A DNA stretch of 29,245 bases from a virus (Duplodnaviria; Heunggongvirae; Uroviricota; Caudoviricetes), in IMG/VR virus record IMGVR_UViG_2778261122_000007, positions 1 through 29,245 of that record. One strand, 5' to 3'. Position 1 is the first letter of the stretch; each line of letters opens with the position of its first letter. Shown one piece after another: positions 1-13,687 of the stretch. The notes below the pieces were generated by a model. The model was not told the DNA's origin and did not search any database. It worked only from the letters and a program-made list of their open reading frames with translations. The translations under genes and the position numbers were made by a program.

Positions 1-567
1 TATCGCGTCCTCAACAATGAATTTTGTGATGCGGTGCCTGGTGCCTCCAGGTGACGTTAACCAGTTAACAATTAACGCCGGATACAGAGAATCCACCCAT
101 GACACTGTTTTTGGTTTTAACTGTTCCGCGTGCGCTCAGCCGCATTCACCGCATCACAAAATTCACTTTAAAAAGGGCGGCAGAGCAGTCACGGAGTAAA
201 ACTGATACCGCCAAACGTCACCAGAAAATTGATAACAGAGGGCGTTGCAGCGGGGTTGTCACTTAAGCGTATGGTCAACCTGACAACCCGGTGTCCTCAA
301 CGGGGAAGGAATAACCCCGCCATACTTACCGTCGCGCCATTTCGCGGAGTGCCACAACCGGAAGCGCACGGTCGAAGAAAATTTAACGACAGACTATCTA
401 TGAACCAGCAACCTCGCCGTGCGCTTTCGCGTTATGCTCTGACTTTTCAGGGAAATATCCTTTCAGTAAACTGTCAGTGCCGGATGCTGACCCGTGTCCG
501 GCGCACGCACTCCACCTCACCCGTGGAGAACTCCTTAATTACCAACCTTAGCTTCGTTGGTTAGCTA

Positions 568-4527: not shown

Positions 4528-5034
4528 TTATTTCTTTGCAGCCAGAATCAGGCCGTCAAGCCACTCCTGGTGACCATTGAGCATTGGGTTCGGACGAGTA
4601 TTTGCCAGGTCTTTTGCTGGAACTCCGTTCTGCGTTTCCTGTGTCAGGATACGGAGTCTGTTACCCGAGAGTTCCTCCAGTAGCCACGCATGATGAACAT
4701 CTAGGCGTTGTACAGTATCTTTTTCACCGGACCATCCGTGCCATGCCAAACGAGCAGGTTTACCTTCAGTAGGTGGAATAAATTCCACGACCTGAGCTTC
4801 AACCGGAAATCCAAATGTGCTGAAGTAAAAGCGCACGCCATTTTCCAGCTCCGGACCTTTATTGTTATAAAAGCGCACATCTGCTGAATTTTTATAGTAT
4901 TCCGGCCATAGTAATGGCTGACTAAGGAGTGGCCAAACATCATTGATGTTCAGACCGGAGATGATCATTTCATTAGACACAAAGTTATCAGTAAATCCCG
5001 GAACAAAGCCTTCTGGCCAGTGAATAGCGTTCAT
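4528..5034 (-). CDS. SRPBCC (Bet v1-like / polyketide cyclase-like) family protein
   Basis: 168 aa from ATG at 5034 (GGAGG Shine-Dalgarno on the reverse strand; the track ORF starts at TTG 5046); aromatic-rich composition typical of SRPBCC ligand-binding folds; family assigned by recognition, not by search. Confidence 0.7.
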   Translation of the reverse strand: MNAIHWPEGFVPGFTDNFVSNEMIISGLNINDVWPLLSQPLLWPEYYKNSADVRFYNNKGPELENGVRFYFSTFGFPVEAQVVEFIPPTEGKPARLAWHGWSGEKDTVQRLDVHHAWLLEELSGNRLRILTQETQNGVPAKDLANTRPNPMLNGHQEWLDGLILAAKK

Positions 5035-5169
5035 AAATGCCTCCAATTGCGGTAGTTAATTGTACTGGGTTTGCTGCGTTACGACCGCAACACGATGGCA
5101 GTGATTATTAGCGCAATGAAGTTATAAGGCGAATTATGATTACTTATAATCTTAATAAGATAAATTATA

Positions 5170-6078
5170 TCAGGAGCCAGTATCTTGGCTAACTTCTACG
5201 CATAAAGCCCGAATCCACTGATGGCTAGGGTCACGATGAGTTCGTTCATGCCAGGCCATACTCTTGGTAAAGCCCGGAACTTTCAGGGGCAAAGGGAGTA
5301 TGATTAGATCGTTGTTAGTCAGGACCATGCGGTGGGGGACAACAGCGATCATATCAGTCACTTGCAATATATCAGGAACTACTTGAAAACTATTAACTGA
5401 CATGCCTACTCGTCGTGTCAGACTGAGCTTAGCCAGTGCTTCATCTGTAACACCGGAGAAGCTACCTTCTGAAGACACCAGAATATGTTCCTGTTTGCAA
5501 AATTGTTCGAGAGTCATTTCTGAATTCGCTGACAACGGATGATTCCGTCGTGCTATGCAAACATAATCTTCTTCATAAAGTGCTCTGCCGTGCAGCTCTC
5601 CGGGAGTGGTTTGTGGTGTTACCAAAGCCAGATCAACTTCTCCCTGAGATAACTGCTGATATATTCGTTTATTGTCTACAGGCCGCACAGAGATTTTAAT
5701 ATTCGGTGCTCGATGTTTCAGCGCAGCCATCAATGGGACAACAACAGCCTTAACTGCATAGTCCGTTGCGACAATGGTATAAGTTAGTTCTGCCGTCATG
5801 GGGTCAAATTTACTTGGTTTCAGCAGAATCGCGATATCGGTGAGAATTTGTTTTACCGGCATAGCAAGCTCTTTGGCACGTAGTGTGGGAACCATACCGT
5901 GACTGGTGCGAACAAAGAGAGGATCGCAAAAATAATCACGTAATCGAATAAGCATGCCACTGACAGCGGGCTGCGTCAGGGAGAGTCGCTGCGCAGCCCG
6001 AGTCACGCTTCCCTCATCCATTAACGCATCAAAGGTCTTAAGTAAGTTAAGGTCGAGGGTTTTGATATCATTTTTCAT
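5170..6078 (-). CDS. LysR-family transcriptional regulator
   Basis: 302 aa; canonical LysR N-terminal HTH (LNLLKTFDALMDEGSVTRAAQRLSLTQPAVSGMLIRLRDYF) followed by a substrate-binding domain. Confidence 0.9.
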   Translation of the reverse strand: MKNDIKTLDLNLLKTFDALMDEGSVTRAAQRLSLTQPAVSGMLIRLRDYFCDPLFVRTSHGMVPTLRAKELAMPVKQILTDIAILLKPSKFDPMTAELTYTIVATDYAVKAVVVPLMAALKHRAPNIKISVRPVDNKRIYQQLSQGEVDLALVTPQTTPGELHGRALYEEDYVCIARRNHPLSANSEMTLEQFCKQEHILVSSEGSFSGVTDEALAKLSLTRRVGMSVNSFQVVPDILQVTDMIAVVPHRMVLTNNDLIILPLPLKVPGFTKSMAWHERTHRDPSHQWIRALCVEVSQDTGS

Positions 6079-6499: not shown

Positions 6500-6653
6500 T
6501 TTCATATTGGCGAGGTAACGGTAGTTAAGTAGAATTGCTGCGGGTGCTTGAGGCTATCTGCCTCGGGCATGAACACCAACGGCAGATAGAGAAAAGCCCC
6601 AGTTAACATTACGCGTCCTGCAAGACGTTTAACATTAATCTGAGGCCATATCT

Positions 6654-6713
6654 ATGCGACACATAGAGATTAGCCTCTTACGGACCGAAAGGTCAAGGAG
6701 AAGCAGGCTATGA
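6654..6713 (+). CDS. mok-like leader ORF (19 codons) translationally coupled to hok
   Basis: ATG 6654 to TGA 6711-6713; the stop overlaps the hok start (ctATGa). Classic mok is longer, so this is an inference. Confidence 0.3.
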   Translation: MRHIEISLLRTERSRRSRL

Positions 6714-8374: not shown

Positions 8375-8734
8375 ATGCGTATAGAGTTTGTTTTGCCTTA
8401 TCCGCCGACGGTGAATACTTACTGGCGACGTCGTGGCAGCACATATTTTGTATCAAAAGTCGGTGAGTGTTATCGCCGTGATGTGGCGCTTATTGTTCGC
8501 CAGCAGCGGCTGAAATTAAAACTGTCCGGAAGGCTGGCGATAAAGATTATTGCAGAGCCACCGGATAAGCGCCGTCGTGACCTGGACAATATCCTGAAAG
8601 CACCACTGGATGCGCTGACGCATGCCGGACTACTCATAGACGACGAGCAGTTTGATGAAATCAATATTGTGCGCGGTCAGCTCGTTCCTGGTGGGCGGCT
8701 GGGGATAAAAATCACAGAACTGGAGTGCGCATGA
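8375..8734 (+). CDS. rusA: RusA Holliday-junction resolvase
   Basis: 119 aa; DKRRRDLDN motif and overall similarity to E. coli RusA; located in the nin-like region before Q. Confidence 0.9.
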   Translation: MRIEFVLPYPPTVNTYWRRRGSTYFVSKVGECYRRDVALIVRQQRLKLKLSGRLAIKIIAEPPDKRRRDLDNILKAPLDALTHAGLLIDDEQFDEINIVRGQLVPGGRLGIKITELECA

Positions 8735-9420
8735 ATAACCAGTATTTACAGTTTGTGCGTGAGCAGCTCATTATCGCCACCGCTGATTTGAGTGGGGCAA
8801 CAAAAGGTCAGCTTGAAGTCTGGCAGGAGAATGCCATGTTCGATACAGGGCGTTACAGGCGAAAAAAAATCCGGTACCGCGATGAAGTGACTGGAAAAAT
8901 GATAACGCGGGATAATCCACCAATCCCGGGAAAGCAATCGCTGGCGAAGGGGACGTCAATTCCTCTGGTCAGTCCGGTTGAGTTTTCGACATCATCGTGG
9001 CGGCGGGCTGTTCTGTCTCTTGAAGAACATCATAAAGCCTGGTTGTTATGGTGTTACAGCGGGAGTATTTGTTGGGAATATCAGATCGCGATAACACAGT
9101 GGGCGTGGAATGAATTTAATACTCAATCCGGTACCAGAAAAATTGCAGGGAAAACGCAGGAACGCCTGAAAAAATTAATCTGGCTGGCGGCGCAGGCAGT
9201 AAAAGCAGAACTTTTAGATGGGGAAGGTTATGAATACCAGGAGCTGGCATTACTGGCGGGAGTGACAACTAAAAACTGGTCCAAAACATTTACTCGTCAC
9301 TGGGTTGCAATGAAACACATTTTTCAACGACTGGATAGTGAGGCTTTATTGTTTGTAATGAGAACGCGTTCAAAACAAAAGGCGGCATTTTCAAAGCAAA
9401 GTGTTGCAAAAGTAGATTGA
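8731..9420 (+). CDS. late-gene antiterminator Q-like protein
   Basis: 229 aa from ATG 8731 (overlaps the rusA stop in ATGA; the track starts at GTG 8725); last early gene before the tRNA/lysis region; Q family assigned by position and size, not by a recognised motif. Confidence 0.7.
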   Translation: MNNQYLQFVREQLIIATADLSGATKGQLEVWQENAMFDTGRYRRKKIRYRDEVTGKMITRDNPPIPGKQSLAKGTSIPLVSPVEFSTSSWRRAVLSLEEHHKAWLLWCYSGSICWEYQIAITQWAWNEFNTQSGTRKIAGKTQERLKKLIWLAAQAVKAELLDGEGYEYQELALLAGVTTKNWSKTFTRHWVAMKHIFQRLDSEALLFVMRTRSKQKAAFSKQSVAKVD

Positions 9421-9485
9421 AAGGCATATATTTCATGCAAATCTGATATTTTGCCGATTTTGTACGTGATGGCAAAAGCAAACAA

Positions 9486-9511
9486 AACCCGCCCACAAGC
9501 GGGTTTTTTTG
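9486..9511 (+). terminator. rho-independent terminator after Q (tR'-like candidate)
   Basis: AAACCCGC-CCACAA-GCGGGTTT hairpin followed by a T7 run. Confidence 0.7.
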
Positions 9512-9630
9512 TGCCACTTATCTCGGATAGACATGGTGAATGCGCTGGTGGAGGAAGTAAGGGTAATTTTTAACCAGGTGATTCTTGAATGCTTGCAACA
9601 TTGATTTCGTAACGTTATTATCCTGCGCCC

Positions 9631-9706
9631 GGCCCTTTAGCTCAGTGGTGAGAGCGAGCGACTCATAATCGCCAGGTCGCTGGTTCAAATCCAGCAAGGG
9701 CCACCA
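9631..9706 (+). tRNA. tRNA with CAU anticodon, Ile2 (lysidine) type, ileX/ileZ-like
   Basis: Manual cloverleaf: acceptor GGCCCTT/AAGGGCC, anticodon arm GCGACTCATAATCGC, T-loop TTCAAAT, encoded CCA; very close to my recollection of E. coli ileX. Confidence 0.8.
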
Positions 9707-9707
9707 A

Positions 9708-9784
9708 CCGCCACTAGCTCATCAGGAAAGAGCGTCAACCCTTTAAGTTGAGTGTGCGAGGTTCGAGTCCCCGGTGGCGGTCCA
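9708..9784 (+). tRNA. tRNA-like gene, anticodon loop CCUUUAA (apparent anticodon UUU, Lys); non-canonical C33 and an A-C mismatch in the T-stem
   Basis: Manual fold: acceptor CCGCCAC/GTGGCGG, D-arm GCTC/GAGC, anticodon stem TCAAC/GTTGA, T-loop TTCGAGT, encoded CCA. Identity is uncertain; it could be a degenerate or specialised tRNA. Confidence 0.5.
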
Positions 9785-9786
9785 GT

Positions 9787-9862
<76 letters not shown>

Positions 9863-9865
9863 TAT

Positions 9866-9940
<75 letters not shown>

Positions 9941-10283
9941 GCAAAACGGATGAGGTACAGGTTTTTCAGCACTGGCGTTTTCTCGTGGGGAATGGTCTCT
10001 TCAATATATTGATTGGAACCCCAAACTATAACTGAGGCCAGATATAGTTTCAGTGCTGTGTTTTTTGACAACAGTGGAATAGGGCATTGTCAGTAGGCGT
10101 TTAGCGTTTTTAGAAACTGATTAGGCACTACTCCGGTGTTGTTAACACCATCCAATGAGGTGAACTCTTGTGCGGAGGTGGTTTCATACGTTGTCTGACG
10201 GGAAACCTCGTATCTGGTGTAGGGGCAGATATTTCGGGTGAATCCCGACACCTCAAATATAAAAGATGTATCTACATGCTTTT

Positions 10284-10309
10284 AGCCGCCGCTCCGGCGG
10301 CTTTTTTTA
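10284..10309 (+). terminator. rho-independent terminator between the tRNA cluster and the lysis genes
   Basis: AGCCGCC-GCTCC-GGCGGCT hairpin followed by TTTTTTT. Confidence 0.65.
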
Positions 10310-10427
10310 TTCATGCTGACTTCCTTCATTGTTAGTTATGGTGTTCTAAGGACTTTCTGTAACTGCATTTTCCCTGCACAAATTATTCATATTAACTACG
10401 CCATCCGTTATTTGCGGAGGTGAGGCT

Positions 10428-10643
10428 ATGAAATCCATGGACAAAATCTCAACGGGCATTGCCTACGGCACCTCCGCAGGCAGTGCTGGCTACTGGTTTT
10501 TACAGTGGCTTGATCAGGTCAGTCCGTCACAGTGGGCTGCGATTGGTGTACTGGGGAGTCTGGTTCTGGGCTTGCTGACGTATCTGACAAACCTTTATTT
10601 CAAGATTAAAGAAGATAAGCGTAAGGCTGCGAGAGGTGAATAA
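10428..10643 (+). CDS. S: class II holin / pinholin (phage 21 S-like) with dual start (Met1 antiholin, Met4 holin)
   Basis: 71 aa; [30 protein letters not shown]... is near-identical to phage 21 S as I recall it; GGAGG Shine-Dalgarno upstream; two TM segments. Confidence 0.9.
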
Positions 10644-11140
10644 TGCCGCCATCATTACGCAAGGCTGTTGCTGCTGCTATTGGTGGTGGGGCTGTTGCCA
10701 TAGCGTCTGTGCTCATCACTGGTCCGAGTGGTGACGATGGCCTGGAAGGTGTCAGCTACATACCATACAAAGATATCGTTGGCGTATGGACTGTATGTCA
10801 CGGACACACCGGAAAAGACATCATTCCCGGTAAAACGTATACCGAAGCAGAATGCAAAGCCCTCCTGAATAAAGACCTTGCCACGGTCGCCAGACAAATT
10901 AACCCGTACATCAAAGTCGATATACCGGAAACAACGCGCGGCGCTCTTTACTCGTTCGTTTACAACGTGGGCGCTGGCAATTTCAGAACATCGACGCTTC
11001 TTCGCAAAATCAACCAGGGTGATATCAAAGGTGCGTGTGATCAGCTACGTCGCTGGACATACGCTGGTGGTAAGCAACGGAAAGGTCTCATGACTCGCCG
11101 TGAGATTGAGCGTGAAGTCTGTTTGTGGGGGCAACAATGA
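10643..11140 (+). CDS. R: SAR endolysin (lysozyme, phage 21 R-like)
   Basis: 165 aa; Gly/Ala-rich N-terminal signal-anchor-release helix ([20 protein letters not shown]) followed by a lysozyme domain; start overlaps the holin stop. Confidence 0.9.
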
Positions 11141-11601
11141 GCAGAGTAACCGCGATTATCTCCGCTCTGGTTATCTGCATCATCGTCAGCCTGTCATGGG
11201 CAGTCAATTATTACCGTGATAACGCCATCTCCTACAAAGACCAGCGCGATAAAGCGAAGGAAAAACTCAGCCAGGCGAACGCCACCATCACTGACATGCA
11301 GCAGCGCCAGCGTGATGTTGCTGCACTGGATGAAAAATACTCAAGGGAGTTAGCTGATGCAAAAGCTGAAAATGATGCTCTGCGTGATGATATTGCCACT
11401 GGTCGTCGTCGGTTGCGCATCAGAGCAGTCTGTCAGACCGTGCGTGAAGCCACCGCCGCCTCCGACATGGGTAATGCAGCCGCCCCCCGACTGGCAGACA
11501 CCGCTGAACGGGATTATTTCACCCTCAGAGAGCGGCTGATAATAATGCAAAAACAACTGGAAGGGGCACAGCTATACATTCGTGAGCAATGTCTCAGATA
11601 A
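11137..11601 (+). CDS. Rz: Rz i-spanin
   Basis: ATG 11137 overlaps the endolysin stop (ATGA); N-terminal TM segment followed by a coiled-coil periplasmic domain; Rz1 is embedded in the +1 frame. Confidence 0.85.
11357..11539 (+). CDS. Rz1: Rz1 o-spanin lipoprotein, embedded within Rz
   Basis: 60 aa; lipobox LVVVGC; proline-rich ([18 protein letters not shown]); entirely inside Rz in another frame. Confidence 0.85.
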
Positions 11602-11756: not shown

Positions 11757-12023
11757 GTGAACGTAGAAAACCTAAGTAACGCACATTACATCTATAACGA
11801 GATGAAAGAGCTACAGCGACAGAAAGGTATACTGGAAAGTGGTGCAGGGCTTGGTGTGACAATCCAGTCTGCCTATCAATATAGTGCTTTTCTTGAGGCC
11901 ATACGCCCGCATGCAGTTGCTGAACTTGACAGCCGTATTGAGGAAAAGAAATCCGCGCTGGTTAATTTGGGTGCTTCCTTCTCTATATACGAGCATAATA
12001 AGGCGGGTTGGAAACCCGCCTAA
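11757..12023 (+). CDS. hypothetical protein (88 aa); doubtful
   Basis: ORF from the track; its 3' end reads through the hairpin at 12002-12020; no clear Shine-Dalgarno noted. Confidence 0.3.
   Translation: MNVENLSNAHYIYNEMKELQRQKGILESGAGLGVTIQSAYQYSAFLEAIRPHAVAELDSRIEEKKSALVNLGASFSIYEHNKAGWKPA
12002..12020. terminator. stem-loop between the convergent 11757-12023 ORF and the YfbU-like gene; likely terminator of the minus-strand gene
   Basis: GGCGGGT-TGGAA-ACCCGCC perfect 7-bp stem; on the minus strand it is followed by UUAUUAU. Confidence 0.45.
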
Positions 12024-12028
12024 AGCAC

Positions 12029-12568
12029 TTAGAAACTGCGTGGAGCTGTGGAAAGAATGGATGCCAGTTCTTCCTTCGATAAATCCCAGCTTCGATTTAC
12101 AGCGTCAATTTTCTTACACTCATCAAGCATTGCGTTATAGAGATGTTCTGTAAGTGAATGAGTATTGGCAATGGGCTGTTTCTGTTCGGGGAAGCGATCA
12201 AATTTCTGATACGCCTCAATGATACTGAAGTAATCGCATTCATTATTACCGTCGAAACCTGGAAGCTGAATTGCCCCATCATGTATTTTTAGATGATGGT
12301 CACGGACTAATTCTTTTTGCTCGTCATCACTAAGTTTCCTGAAAGCATTGGAAAGTCCGCGATACATATTCAAGACAGCAGTAACAAAATCACGATCTTC
12401 TTTACTTGGTTCGTCAACATCCAAATGTGAATATTCGGCCTTGATAACCCAATCATTACCAGATGACACAGCATATTTAACAAGCTGTGGATCAATATCA
12501 GTTTCGATACCTAGGTGGATGGCAATGTCACATAACAAAATGGTATTGATTTTATCTTTAATATCCAT
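12029..12568 (-). CDS. YfbU-family (UPF0304-like) protein; moron between the lysis and packaging modules
   Basis: 179 aa; recalled similarity to E. coli YfbU (VLNMY..L, GFDGNNE versus GFDAATE, FDRFPEQ region); opposite orientation to the flanking phage operons. Confidence 0.6.
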   Translation of the reverse strand: MDIKDKINTILLCDIAIHLGIETDIDPQLVKYAVSSGNDWVIKAEYSHLDVDEPSKEDRDFVTAVLNMYRGLSNAFRKLSDDEQKELVRDHHLKIHDGAIQLPGFDGNNECDYFSIIEAYQKFDRFPEQKQPIANTHSLTEHLYNAMLDECKKIDAVNRSWDLSKEELASILSTAPRSF

Positions 12569-12706: not shown

Positions 12707-13057
12707 ATGCCAGCACTAATCCCACGCGCCTGCCGTAAGCGTGGATGTGCAGGTACAACCACAGACAGTTCTGGTTACTGCGATAAACATCGTGGCGAAG
12801 GATGGGTACAGCATCAACGCGGACTGAGCCGCCACCAGCGTGGCTATGGCTCGAAATGGGATGCCATACGTGCGCGCATACTGAAGCGTGATAATCATCT
12901 GTGTCAGAACTGCCTGCGCAATGGCAGAGCCGTTGAAGCCAGAACTGTGGACCACATCATTCCGAAAGCTCATGGTGGCACGGATGCAGACAGTAACCTG
13001 CAGACTCTGTGCTGGCCCTGTCATAAAGCAAAAACAGCGCGCGAACGCATCAATTGA
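12707..13057 (+). CDS. HNH endonuclease (terminase-associated)
   Basis: 116 aa; N-terminal Cys cluster and HNH core (DHIIPKAHGGTDADSNLQTLCWPCH); immediately upstream of the small terminase. Confidence 0.85.
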   Translation: MPALIPRACRKRGCAGTTTDSSGYCDKHRGEGWVQHQRGLSRHQRGYGSKWDAIRARILKRDNHLCQNCLRNGRAVEARTVDHIIPKAHGGTDADSNLQTLCWPCHKAKTARERIN

Positions 13058-13204
13058 TAACAGCTCCCATCTGCAGGGGAGGGGCGGGTCAAATCTCTGC
13101 AACCCTGGCTGTTCAGTACCGCCGCCTGACCTTTCCTCGCATCGCCGCAGGTTCGAAAACTTTTTTTTGGAATGTGATTAAATGATTGATAGGTAAAATC
13201 GATT

Positions 13205-13687
13205 ATGTCAGGCCCCCCGAAAACCCCGCCACGCCTGCATTTGATACGAGGCAACCCCTCAAAGCGCCCCGTTAAAGACCCCAAAAAAACCGCTAAAAAG
13301 GATGAAAAAGGTCTCCCTAAAATTCCGCAACATTTAGGGTCGCAGGGGAAGTACTGGTTCAGGCGAATGGCGGAAGAACTGAATGCGGAAGGGATCATTT
13401 CTCAGCTTGATGCGCGTGCACTCGAGTTACTGGTGGAAGCCTACACCGAATACCGGCATCACTGCGAAACACTTGATGCTGAGGGGTATACCTACCGCAC
13501 GGAAACGCAGAACGGTGATGTGCTGATTAAGGCACACCCGGCTGCTGCGATGAAGGCGGATGCCTGGAAGCGGATCCGGGCGATGCTTGCAGAGTTTGGT
13601 ATGTCACCGGCAAGCCGGGCTAAAGTAAATACCGCCGGACCGGATGATGTTGATCCGCTGGCGGAGCTTTTAAAAGCGAGAGACTGA
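13205..13687 (+). CDS. terminase small subunit (P27 family-like)
   Basis: 160 aa; basic N-terminus (PKTPPRLHLIRGNPSKRP); immediately precedes and overlaps the large terminase. Confidence 0.8.
   Translation: MSGPPKTPPRLHLIRGNPSKRPVKDPKKTAKKDEKGLPKIPQHLGSQGKYWFRRMAEELNAEGIISQLDARALELLVEAYTEYRHHCETLDAEGYTYRTETQNGDVLIKAHPAAAMKADAWKRIRAMLAEFGMSPASRAKVNTAGPDDVDPLAELLKARD

Follow-up and report, generated by a model that had tools for sequence, protein, structure and literature searches.

By which route does the prophage in IMG/VR record IMGVR_UViG_2778261122_000007 lyse its host? The record positions 1 to 29,245 that we analyzed (29,245 nucleotides [nt], hereafter the window) can be read as the Q-to-packaging segment of a common Escherichia coli lambdoid prophage (Qin/DicF type, HK97-like head), and they carry a cassette of four genes, S, R, Rz, and Rz1, at the place in the late operon where lambdoid phages, phage 21 included, normally have their lysis genes. 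An initial annotation, made without database searches, had described this cassette as a phage 21-type module with a dual-start pinholin, a signal-anchor-release (SAR) endolysin, and Rz with embedded Rz1. Our analysis argues strongly for this assignment: the cassette is very probably a late-operon lysis module orthologous to the S-R-Rz/Rz1 genes of phage 21, and the prophage would lyse its host through the pinholin/SAR route, not the lambda route.

The genes follow the order S-R-Rz/Rz1, span positions 10428 to 11601, and all lie on the plus strand (Table 1). The location and overlaps given in the initial annotation match the open reading frame (ORF) list and the sequence exactly, and both junction types that it named can be read directly: at the TAATG junction between S and R (...GAATAATGCC), the S stop codon TAA shares one base with the ATG of R, and at the ATGA junction between R and Rz (...CAACAATGAGC), the TGA of R is overlapped by the ATG of Rz. 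The mechanical ORF list places the Rz start at an upstream GTG, at position 11125. A purine-rich, correctly spaced Shine-Dalgarno sequence is found ahead of each of the four genes. The four Pfam matches (7e-36, 3e-45, 2e-48, and 3e-17) are far above chance, and the PHROGs annotations (holin, endolysin, and, for both Rz and Rz1, Rz-like spanin) give the same lysis roles as Pfam. We regarded ORFs on the reverse strand inside the cassette, e.g., at 10655 to 10897 and 11350 to 11556, as mere shadows of the coding strand, and the family libraries were searched without them.

Table 1. Positions of the lysis genes and of late-operon features upstream of them, in window coordinates
Feature	Position	Strand	Evidence or remark
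S	10428-10643	+	71 amino acids (aa); ORF list and sequence
S, long product from Met1; antiholin (antipinholin), counterpart of S21-71	10428-10643	+	71 aa; Pfam, phage 21 alignment, Lys2
S, short product from Met4; pinholin, counterpart of S21-68	10437-10643	+	68 aa; second in-frame ATG
Shine-Dalgarno region of S (GCGGAGGTGAGGC)	10412-10424	+	Sequence; corresponds to the annotated ribosome-binding site of phage 21
R	10643-11140	+	165 aa; ORF list and sequence
Rz	11137-11601	+	154 aa, counted from the ATG at 11137
Rz1	11357-11539	+	60 aa; inside Rz
Late antiterminator Q	8731-9420	+	229 aa; phrog_304 "anti-termination protein Q-like," 3e-107
Four tRNA genes, late-operon leader	9631-9940	+	ARAGORN, Rfam tRNA, PGAP at near-identical locus
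STnc100/PasD-like structured RNA, sub-threshold, ending in the terminator	10132-10312	+	Rfam RF02076
Intrinsic terminator, ∼120 nt upstream of S	10284-10310	+	8-pair stem (7 G-C), T7 run

We compared the cassette with phage 21, using the curated record OL657228.1, annotated with antiholin S21-71, class II holin S21-68, SAR endolysin, i-spanin, and o-spanin. In global alignments of the proteins, S is identical to phage 21 S71 at 68 of 71 residues (96%), including all of the first 48, and its three changes (F49L, R61K, and R64K) are conservative. R is identical to R21 at 157 of 165 residues (95%), with eight changes that include the nonconservative W146R. Rz and Rz1 diverge more, with ∼122 of 154 residues (∼79%) and 51 of 60 residues (85%) identical to the phage 21 Rz and the Rz1 o-spanin, respectively. 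Nucleotide identity is 89.3% over window positions 10394 to 11564, a match that stops ∼35 nt short of the end of Rz. Phage 21 shares the four genes, their order, the MKSMDK dual start, and an Rz1 embedded in the +1 frame, and the curated coordinates show the same overlaps: the final base of S is also the first of R, and Rz overlaps the end of R by 4 bases. The initial annotation had named alignment to phage 21 S, R, Rz, and Rz1 as the check on its proposal and poor alignment to S21 or R21, or a missing lipobox in the embedded frame, as grounds for giving it up; these identities bear the proposal out, and the lipobox is there. The DLP12 genes essD, rrrD (ybcS), and rzpD-rzoD of E. coli K-12 belong to the same family as the window cassette, and RefSeq names homologues of the window locus rrrD, rzpD, and essD.

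S falls in the Pfam family PF04971 ("Bacteriophage P21 holin S"), with an E value of 7.4e-36 and a score of 122 bits, the cutoff being 26. Its N terminus reads MKSMDK, with in-frame ATG codons at 10428 (Met1) and 10437 (Met4); the phage 21 record annotates the same dual start as two coding sequences, in agreement with the antiholin/holin pair proposed initially. Lys2, between the two methionines, places one extra positive charge before Met4; such a charge is the distinguishing feature of the antiholin (PMC9636201). Judged from hydropathy alone, S has two transmembrane domains (TMDs). TMD1 (residues 8 to 28) is weakly hydrophobic (mean Kyte-Doolittle [KD] value, 0.33; 57% Gly/Ala/Ser/Thr), and TMD2 (residues 36 to 57) is hydrophobic (mean KD value, 1.49); the KD17 profile exceeds 1.0 at residues ∼31 to 58 only, and the C-terminal tail (residues 58 to 71) is basic, with six Lys/Arg residues. 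Conservation was counted over 82 related loci, of which 80 are viral contigs and the other two are phage 21 and the nearest E. coli genome. Met1 (73/73) and Met4 (80/80) are invariant among the aligned loci, Lys2 is kept in 63 of 73, and G40, S44, and G48 are kept in all 82. S21-68 forms small (∼2-nm, heptameric) channels that depolarize the membrane and do not release a cytoplasmic endolysin (PMC9636201); because S is 96% identical to S21, S68 of the window would be expected to form such small depolarizing channels as well.

R belongs to the phage lysozymes of Pfam PF00959 (3e-45), and a PDB sequence search matches it to 3HDE (R21; 3e-106) and 4ZPU (E. coli RrrD; 4e-107), the matches to 3HDE, 3HDF, and 4ZPU ranging from 3e-90 to 4e-107. 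It is a GH24 lysozyme whose triad, E35/D44/T50, conforms to E-X8-D-X5-T and is invariant in 82 of 82 relatives. That motif is described together with the SAR criteria, a weakly hydrophobic helix preceded by one to three basic residues (PMC9239132). In R, the helix (residues ∼8 to 27) is Gly/Ala rich, with 65% Gly/Ala/Ser/Thr; the basic residues R6 and K7 directly precede it, and I18V is its sole change relative to R21. The helix thus takes the place of a cytoplasmic lysozyme N terminus, as the initial annotation had claimed; its account of R as a SAR endolysin stands, and to it we add the unusual W146R substitution. P1 Lyz, Mu gp22, and 933W R, all of them only distant relatives in sequence, likewise have an N-terminal SAR helix of weak hydrophobicity and the E-X8-D-X5-T triad (PMC9239132). 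The P1 Lyz structures 1XJT and 1XJU match R at ∼2e-9; P1 Lyz is activated by disulfide isomerization, and in Mu a releasin takes the place of the holin (PMC9239132). Release and activation upon pinholin depolarization constitute the definitive test of a SAR endolysin (PMC9239132), and, given the 95% identity to R21, R is likely to be released from the membrane and activated in this way.

Codon 146 of R is CGG (Arg; window positions 11078 to 11080). The corresponding residue is Trp in all 82 related loci, which are 95 to 99% identical and include phage 21; RrrD also has Trp, the nearest complete genome carries TGG, and in distant homologues of solved structure the aligned residue is Met. RrrD (4ZPU) shares Thr97 and Val159 with R of the window and differs from it in its Trp at 146. 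The R146 allele is present on at least 24 public contigs from different assemblies, always in the same prophage context and with a late region that otherwise looks intact; one of these contigs is named vOTU_09187, a viral OTU, in ENA. The R146 cassettes are nearly clonal, differing by 0 to 3 nt. Two explanations of the substitution were rejected. It is not a sequencing error or private mutation, since 24 or more contigs encode exactly this protein and CGG was found in 7 of the 7 loci inspected; nor is residue 146 variable in the family, given Trp in 82 of 82 relatives and Met in the distant PDB homologues.

No evidence contradicts the phage 21-type assignment. Two caveats concern R and the start of S. 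With W146R, full enzymatic activity of R would not be guaranteed. At the S start, predicted hairpins in an 81-nt fold cover the Shine-Dalgarno sequence and pair both AUG codons, but the fold is not statistically better than those of shuffled sequences (z = −1.08); the same region of phage 21 gives z = −0.69, and the hairpins of one phage are not preserved in the other.

If W146R weakened the endolysin, the cassette could belong to the same family and yet be attenuated, decaying, or domesticated like DLP12 essD-rrrD-rzpD/rzoD, with poor lysis or none. The substitution at a residue that is Trp in every relative, and a hydrophobic Met in distant solved homologues, would fit this possibility, as would the state of the same prophage lineage in the closest complete genome, where it is clearly degraded by a portal-to-tail deletion. 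The near clonality of the R146 cassettes also fits, because it leaves little time for purifying selection to have acted. However, the four ORFs are full length, their starts, Shine-Dalgarno sequences, and overlaps are intact, and so are the catalytic triad and SAR helix of R. The allele moreover recurs on the 24 or more contigs with an intact-looking late region, and, whereas DLP12 is a defective remnant, the prophage of the window has intact-looking packaging, head, and tail ORFs. We therefore consider attenuation unlikely.

A lambda-type system, with a canonical large-hole holin and a soluble cytoplasmic endolysin, has next to nothing in its favor. Lambda S105/S107, R, Rz, and Rz1 share the gene order, the dual-start holin/antiholin logic, and the embedded Rz1, and lambda Rz and Rz1 fall into the Pfam families of their window counterparts; the shared order and dual-start logic are all that would speak for such a system. 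Lambda S, however, is a class I holin with three TMDs that makes micron-scale holes, and R of lambda is a transglycosylase that is soluble in the cytoplasm (PMC9636201; also established knowledge). The window holin is unlike the former, being of class II, with two hydrophobic segments instead of three and a match to the P21 holin family; its endolysin is unlike the latter, being a SAR lysozyme of the GH24 family with an N-terminal membrane helix and 95% identity to R21, not a lambda-type transglycosylase. The Pfam matches, phage 21 alignments, PDB matches, and features of R refute a lambda-type system, and the contrast with lambda drawn in the initial annotation was correct.

The remaining two genes encode the spanins. 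Rz matches Pfam PF03245 (1.7e-48) and phrog_13 (5e-73) and is an i-spanin with an N-terminal TMD at residues ∼4 to 24, within a hydrophobic stretch (residues 1 to 28) that peaks at a KD17 value of 2.69; past the TMD, in the periplasmic domain, 36% of the residues are charged. Rz1 lies wholly within Rz in the +1 frame [(11357 − 11137) mod 3 = 1], has its own Shine-Dalgarno sequence (AAGGGAG, 8 nt upstream), and matches Pfam PF06085 (Rz1 precursor; 2.7e-17) and phrog_3198 (1.1e-26). The lipobox LVVVGC that had been noticed in this frame is present at residues 15 to 20, its VVGC ending in the putative lipidation site Cys20; two basic residues form part of the n-region, and the cysteine is followed by Ala-Ser, with no Asp for inner-membrane retention. 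Rz1 is proline rich, as also noticed, with 20% Pro overall and 11 of 41 residues (27%) in the mature part. An embedded +1 lipobox ORF was found in 42 related loci as well. Periplasmic cysteines serve intermolecular disulfides in the lambda spanins, namely, C99 and C152 of Rz and C29 of Rz1. Rz of the window has Cys99 and Cys152, conserved in 77 of 77 and 70 of 76 relatives, respectively; in Rz1, Cys20 is kept in 62 of 62 relatives and Cys29 in 36 of 62. That the Rz1 frame is a chance ORF and Rz alone is real, as might be thought from the lack of an Rz1 call by PGAP in the nearest complete genome and from gene callers that give Rz or Rz1 but never both, is highly improbable and is refuted at the level of sequence evidence by the family matches, the Shine-Dalgarno sequence, the invariant lipobox cysteine, the 85% identity to an annotated phage 21 o-spanin, and the name "Rz1 family lipoprotein" that the exact sequence bears on 36 contigs.

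How a phage 21-type cassette would work here can be proposed because its products are 79 to 96% identical to experimentally characterized phage 21 proteins; the steps below follow the phage 21 mechanism as reviewed in PMC9636201 and, for the SAR endolysin, PMC9239132. After induction, Q would carry RNA polymerase from the late promoter through the tRNA genes and the terminator into S. Translation from Met1 and Met4 would yield S71, the antipinholin, and S68, the pinholin, with Lys2 keeping TMD1 of S71 in the membrane. S68 would accumulate until, at a set time, its TMD1 exits the bilayer and TMD2 oligomerizes into small (∼2-nm, heptameric) channels, collapsing the proton motive force. R, meanwhile, would have been exported by Sec and kept inactive in the inner membrane by its SAR helix; depolarization would free it to refold and to cleave peptidoglycan through E35/D44/T50. 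Rz, anchored in the inner membrane, and the lipoprotein Rz1, anchored in the outer membrane, would form a complex spanning the periplasm. After removal of the wall, this complex would disrupt the outer membrane or fuse it.

The cassette is already known and named in public databases and is a textbook phage 21-type module. Related cassette DNA occurs in 5,169 of 5,426 complete E. coli genomes and in 560 phage records. The exact proteins are present in public collections under the same names, on 91 (S), 24 (R), 30 (Rz), and 36 (Rz1) contigs. The first 25 kb of the window is present to an extent of ≥80% in 34 complete genomes, and induced or isolated phages, e.g., vB_EcoM-606R7 and phi467, cover 54 to 77% of it at 95 to 97% identity. 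The closest complete genome is that of strain ChlosBP-23-1 (NZ_CP048603.1), with 99.8% identity over 1,401 nt; its annotations read class II holin family protein, lysozyme RrrD, and lysis protein, and PGAP omitted Rz1. In our extract of that genome (L002), Rz is at 12838 to 13302 without an annotation of the embedded gene. Seven contigs with an identical cassette (L083 to L089) each have a gene call for Rz or for Rz1 but not for both. The ChlosBP-23-1 prophage has a deletion from the portal to the tail tip, with pseudogene fragments (L002, 17340 to 24000, versus 16074 to 17809 of the window), and a cdtABC (cytolethal distending toxin) operon lies downstream; in the window, by contrast, the ORFs for portal, protease, capsid, and tape measure look intact.

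Upstream of the cassette, the Q assignment agrees with the PGAP call "bacteriophage antitermination protein Q" in a 99% identical locus and with Pfam PF06323 on identical contigs; Q should drive expression of the cassette. Directly after Q, positions 9404 to 9512 (plus strand) hold a promoter-like site, TTGCAA-17-TATATT, and a GC hairpin with a T run (9484 to 9512), a layout that resembles pR′, tR′, and a short leader RNA; weak sub-threshold isrK/isrJ matches fall within the same interval. The tRNA anticodons are CAT, TTT (Lys), TGT (Thr), and TCC (Gly). The tRNA with CAT is Met according to ARAGORN, but PGAP calls its counterpart in the 99% identical locus of NZ_CP048603.1 tRNA-Ile, which would make it a lysidine-type Ile2.

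This leader differs from that of phage 21. The window has four tRNA genes, a ∼450-nt spacer, and the terminator; phage 21 has tR′ followed by two tRNAs (Asn and Thr), with the S start 120 nt on. Homology to other 21-type cassettes begins ∼34 nt ahead of the S start. None of 50,697 phage records matched the spacer (9941 to 10393), even at a blastn word size of 11, and it occurs in 9 of 5,426 complete E. coli genomes, 4 at ≥99% and 5 as partial matches (74.5%). We considered whether it is a remnant of a toxin gene or moron, comparable to stx in Stx phages, and rejected this; it has no phage match and no convincing ORF. The full-length RF02076 model scores 35.4 bits in it against a gathering threshold of 47 (E value, 2.8e-6 in a 381-nt search). 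A weaker match to the manA-II motif lies in the same spacer upstream of S. Small RNAs (sRNAs) of the STnc100/PasD family have been placed between Q and holin-lysozyme operons (2026 preprint); STnc100 at gathering level was found in 0 of 20 related loci with S21-type holins. Q-modified RNA polymerase would probably read through the strong intrinsic terminator at 10284 to 10310.

It is conceivable, though we give it rather little credence, that two peculiarities of the locus matter: W146R would alter folding, release, or activity of R and, hence, the timing of lysis, and the rare ∼450-nt leader would encode a divergent STnc100/PasD-family sRNA, its terminator gating Q-dependent entry into the lysis genes. 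If true, the altered endolysin or leader sRNA would represent small allelic or regulatory variation on a textbook system.

The presence of a DicF antisense RNA (175 to 226, minus strand; 76.7 bits) and of the sok antitoxin RNA of a hokD/sok module (∼6542 to 6712, plus strand; 101.3 bits) is why we class the prophage as Qin/DicF type. Genes for DUF968/HNH, RusA, and Q precede the cassette. Downstream of it, intact ORFs encode a phrog_5415 protein, YfbU on the reverse strand, HNH, P27-type TerS, TerL, portal, and major capsid protein. Where phage 21 has bor, the window thus has the phrog_5415 ORF (88 aa; 11757 to 12023, plus strand), between Rz and the HNH/terminase genes, and the YfbU-family gene (12029 to 12568, minus strand; phrog_6084, PF03887); the two occupy the moron position that bor has in phage 21 and lambda. 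The early region carries cargo at 4528 to 6078 (minus strand), a polyketide cyclase-like protein and a LysR-family regulator according to PGAP at a near-identical locus. On a contig of GCA_027951985.1 (L089, positions 1 to 2700), an identical cassette is preceded by reverse-strand genes for AntA/P22_AR, a DksA/TraR zinc finger, DUF4752, and Ead/Ea22; these genes replace DUF968-RusA-Q, which implies that the sequence was rearranged, or has a mosaic junction, immediately upstream of S.

The cassette matters little beyond its correct annotation. It also shows that Rz1 is present where annotation pipelines often omit the embedded o-spanin gene. The W146R allele of the endolysin and the STnc100-like leader RNA are the only items that might repay experiment.

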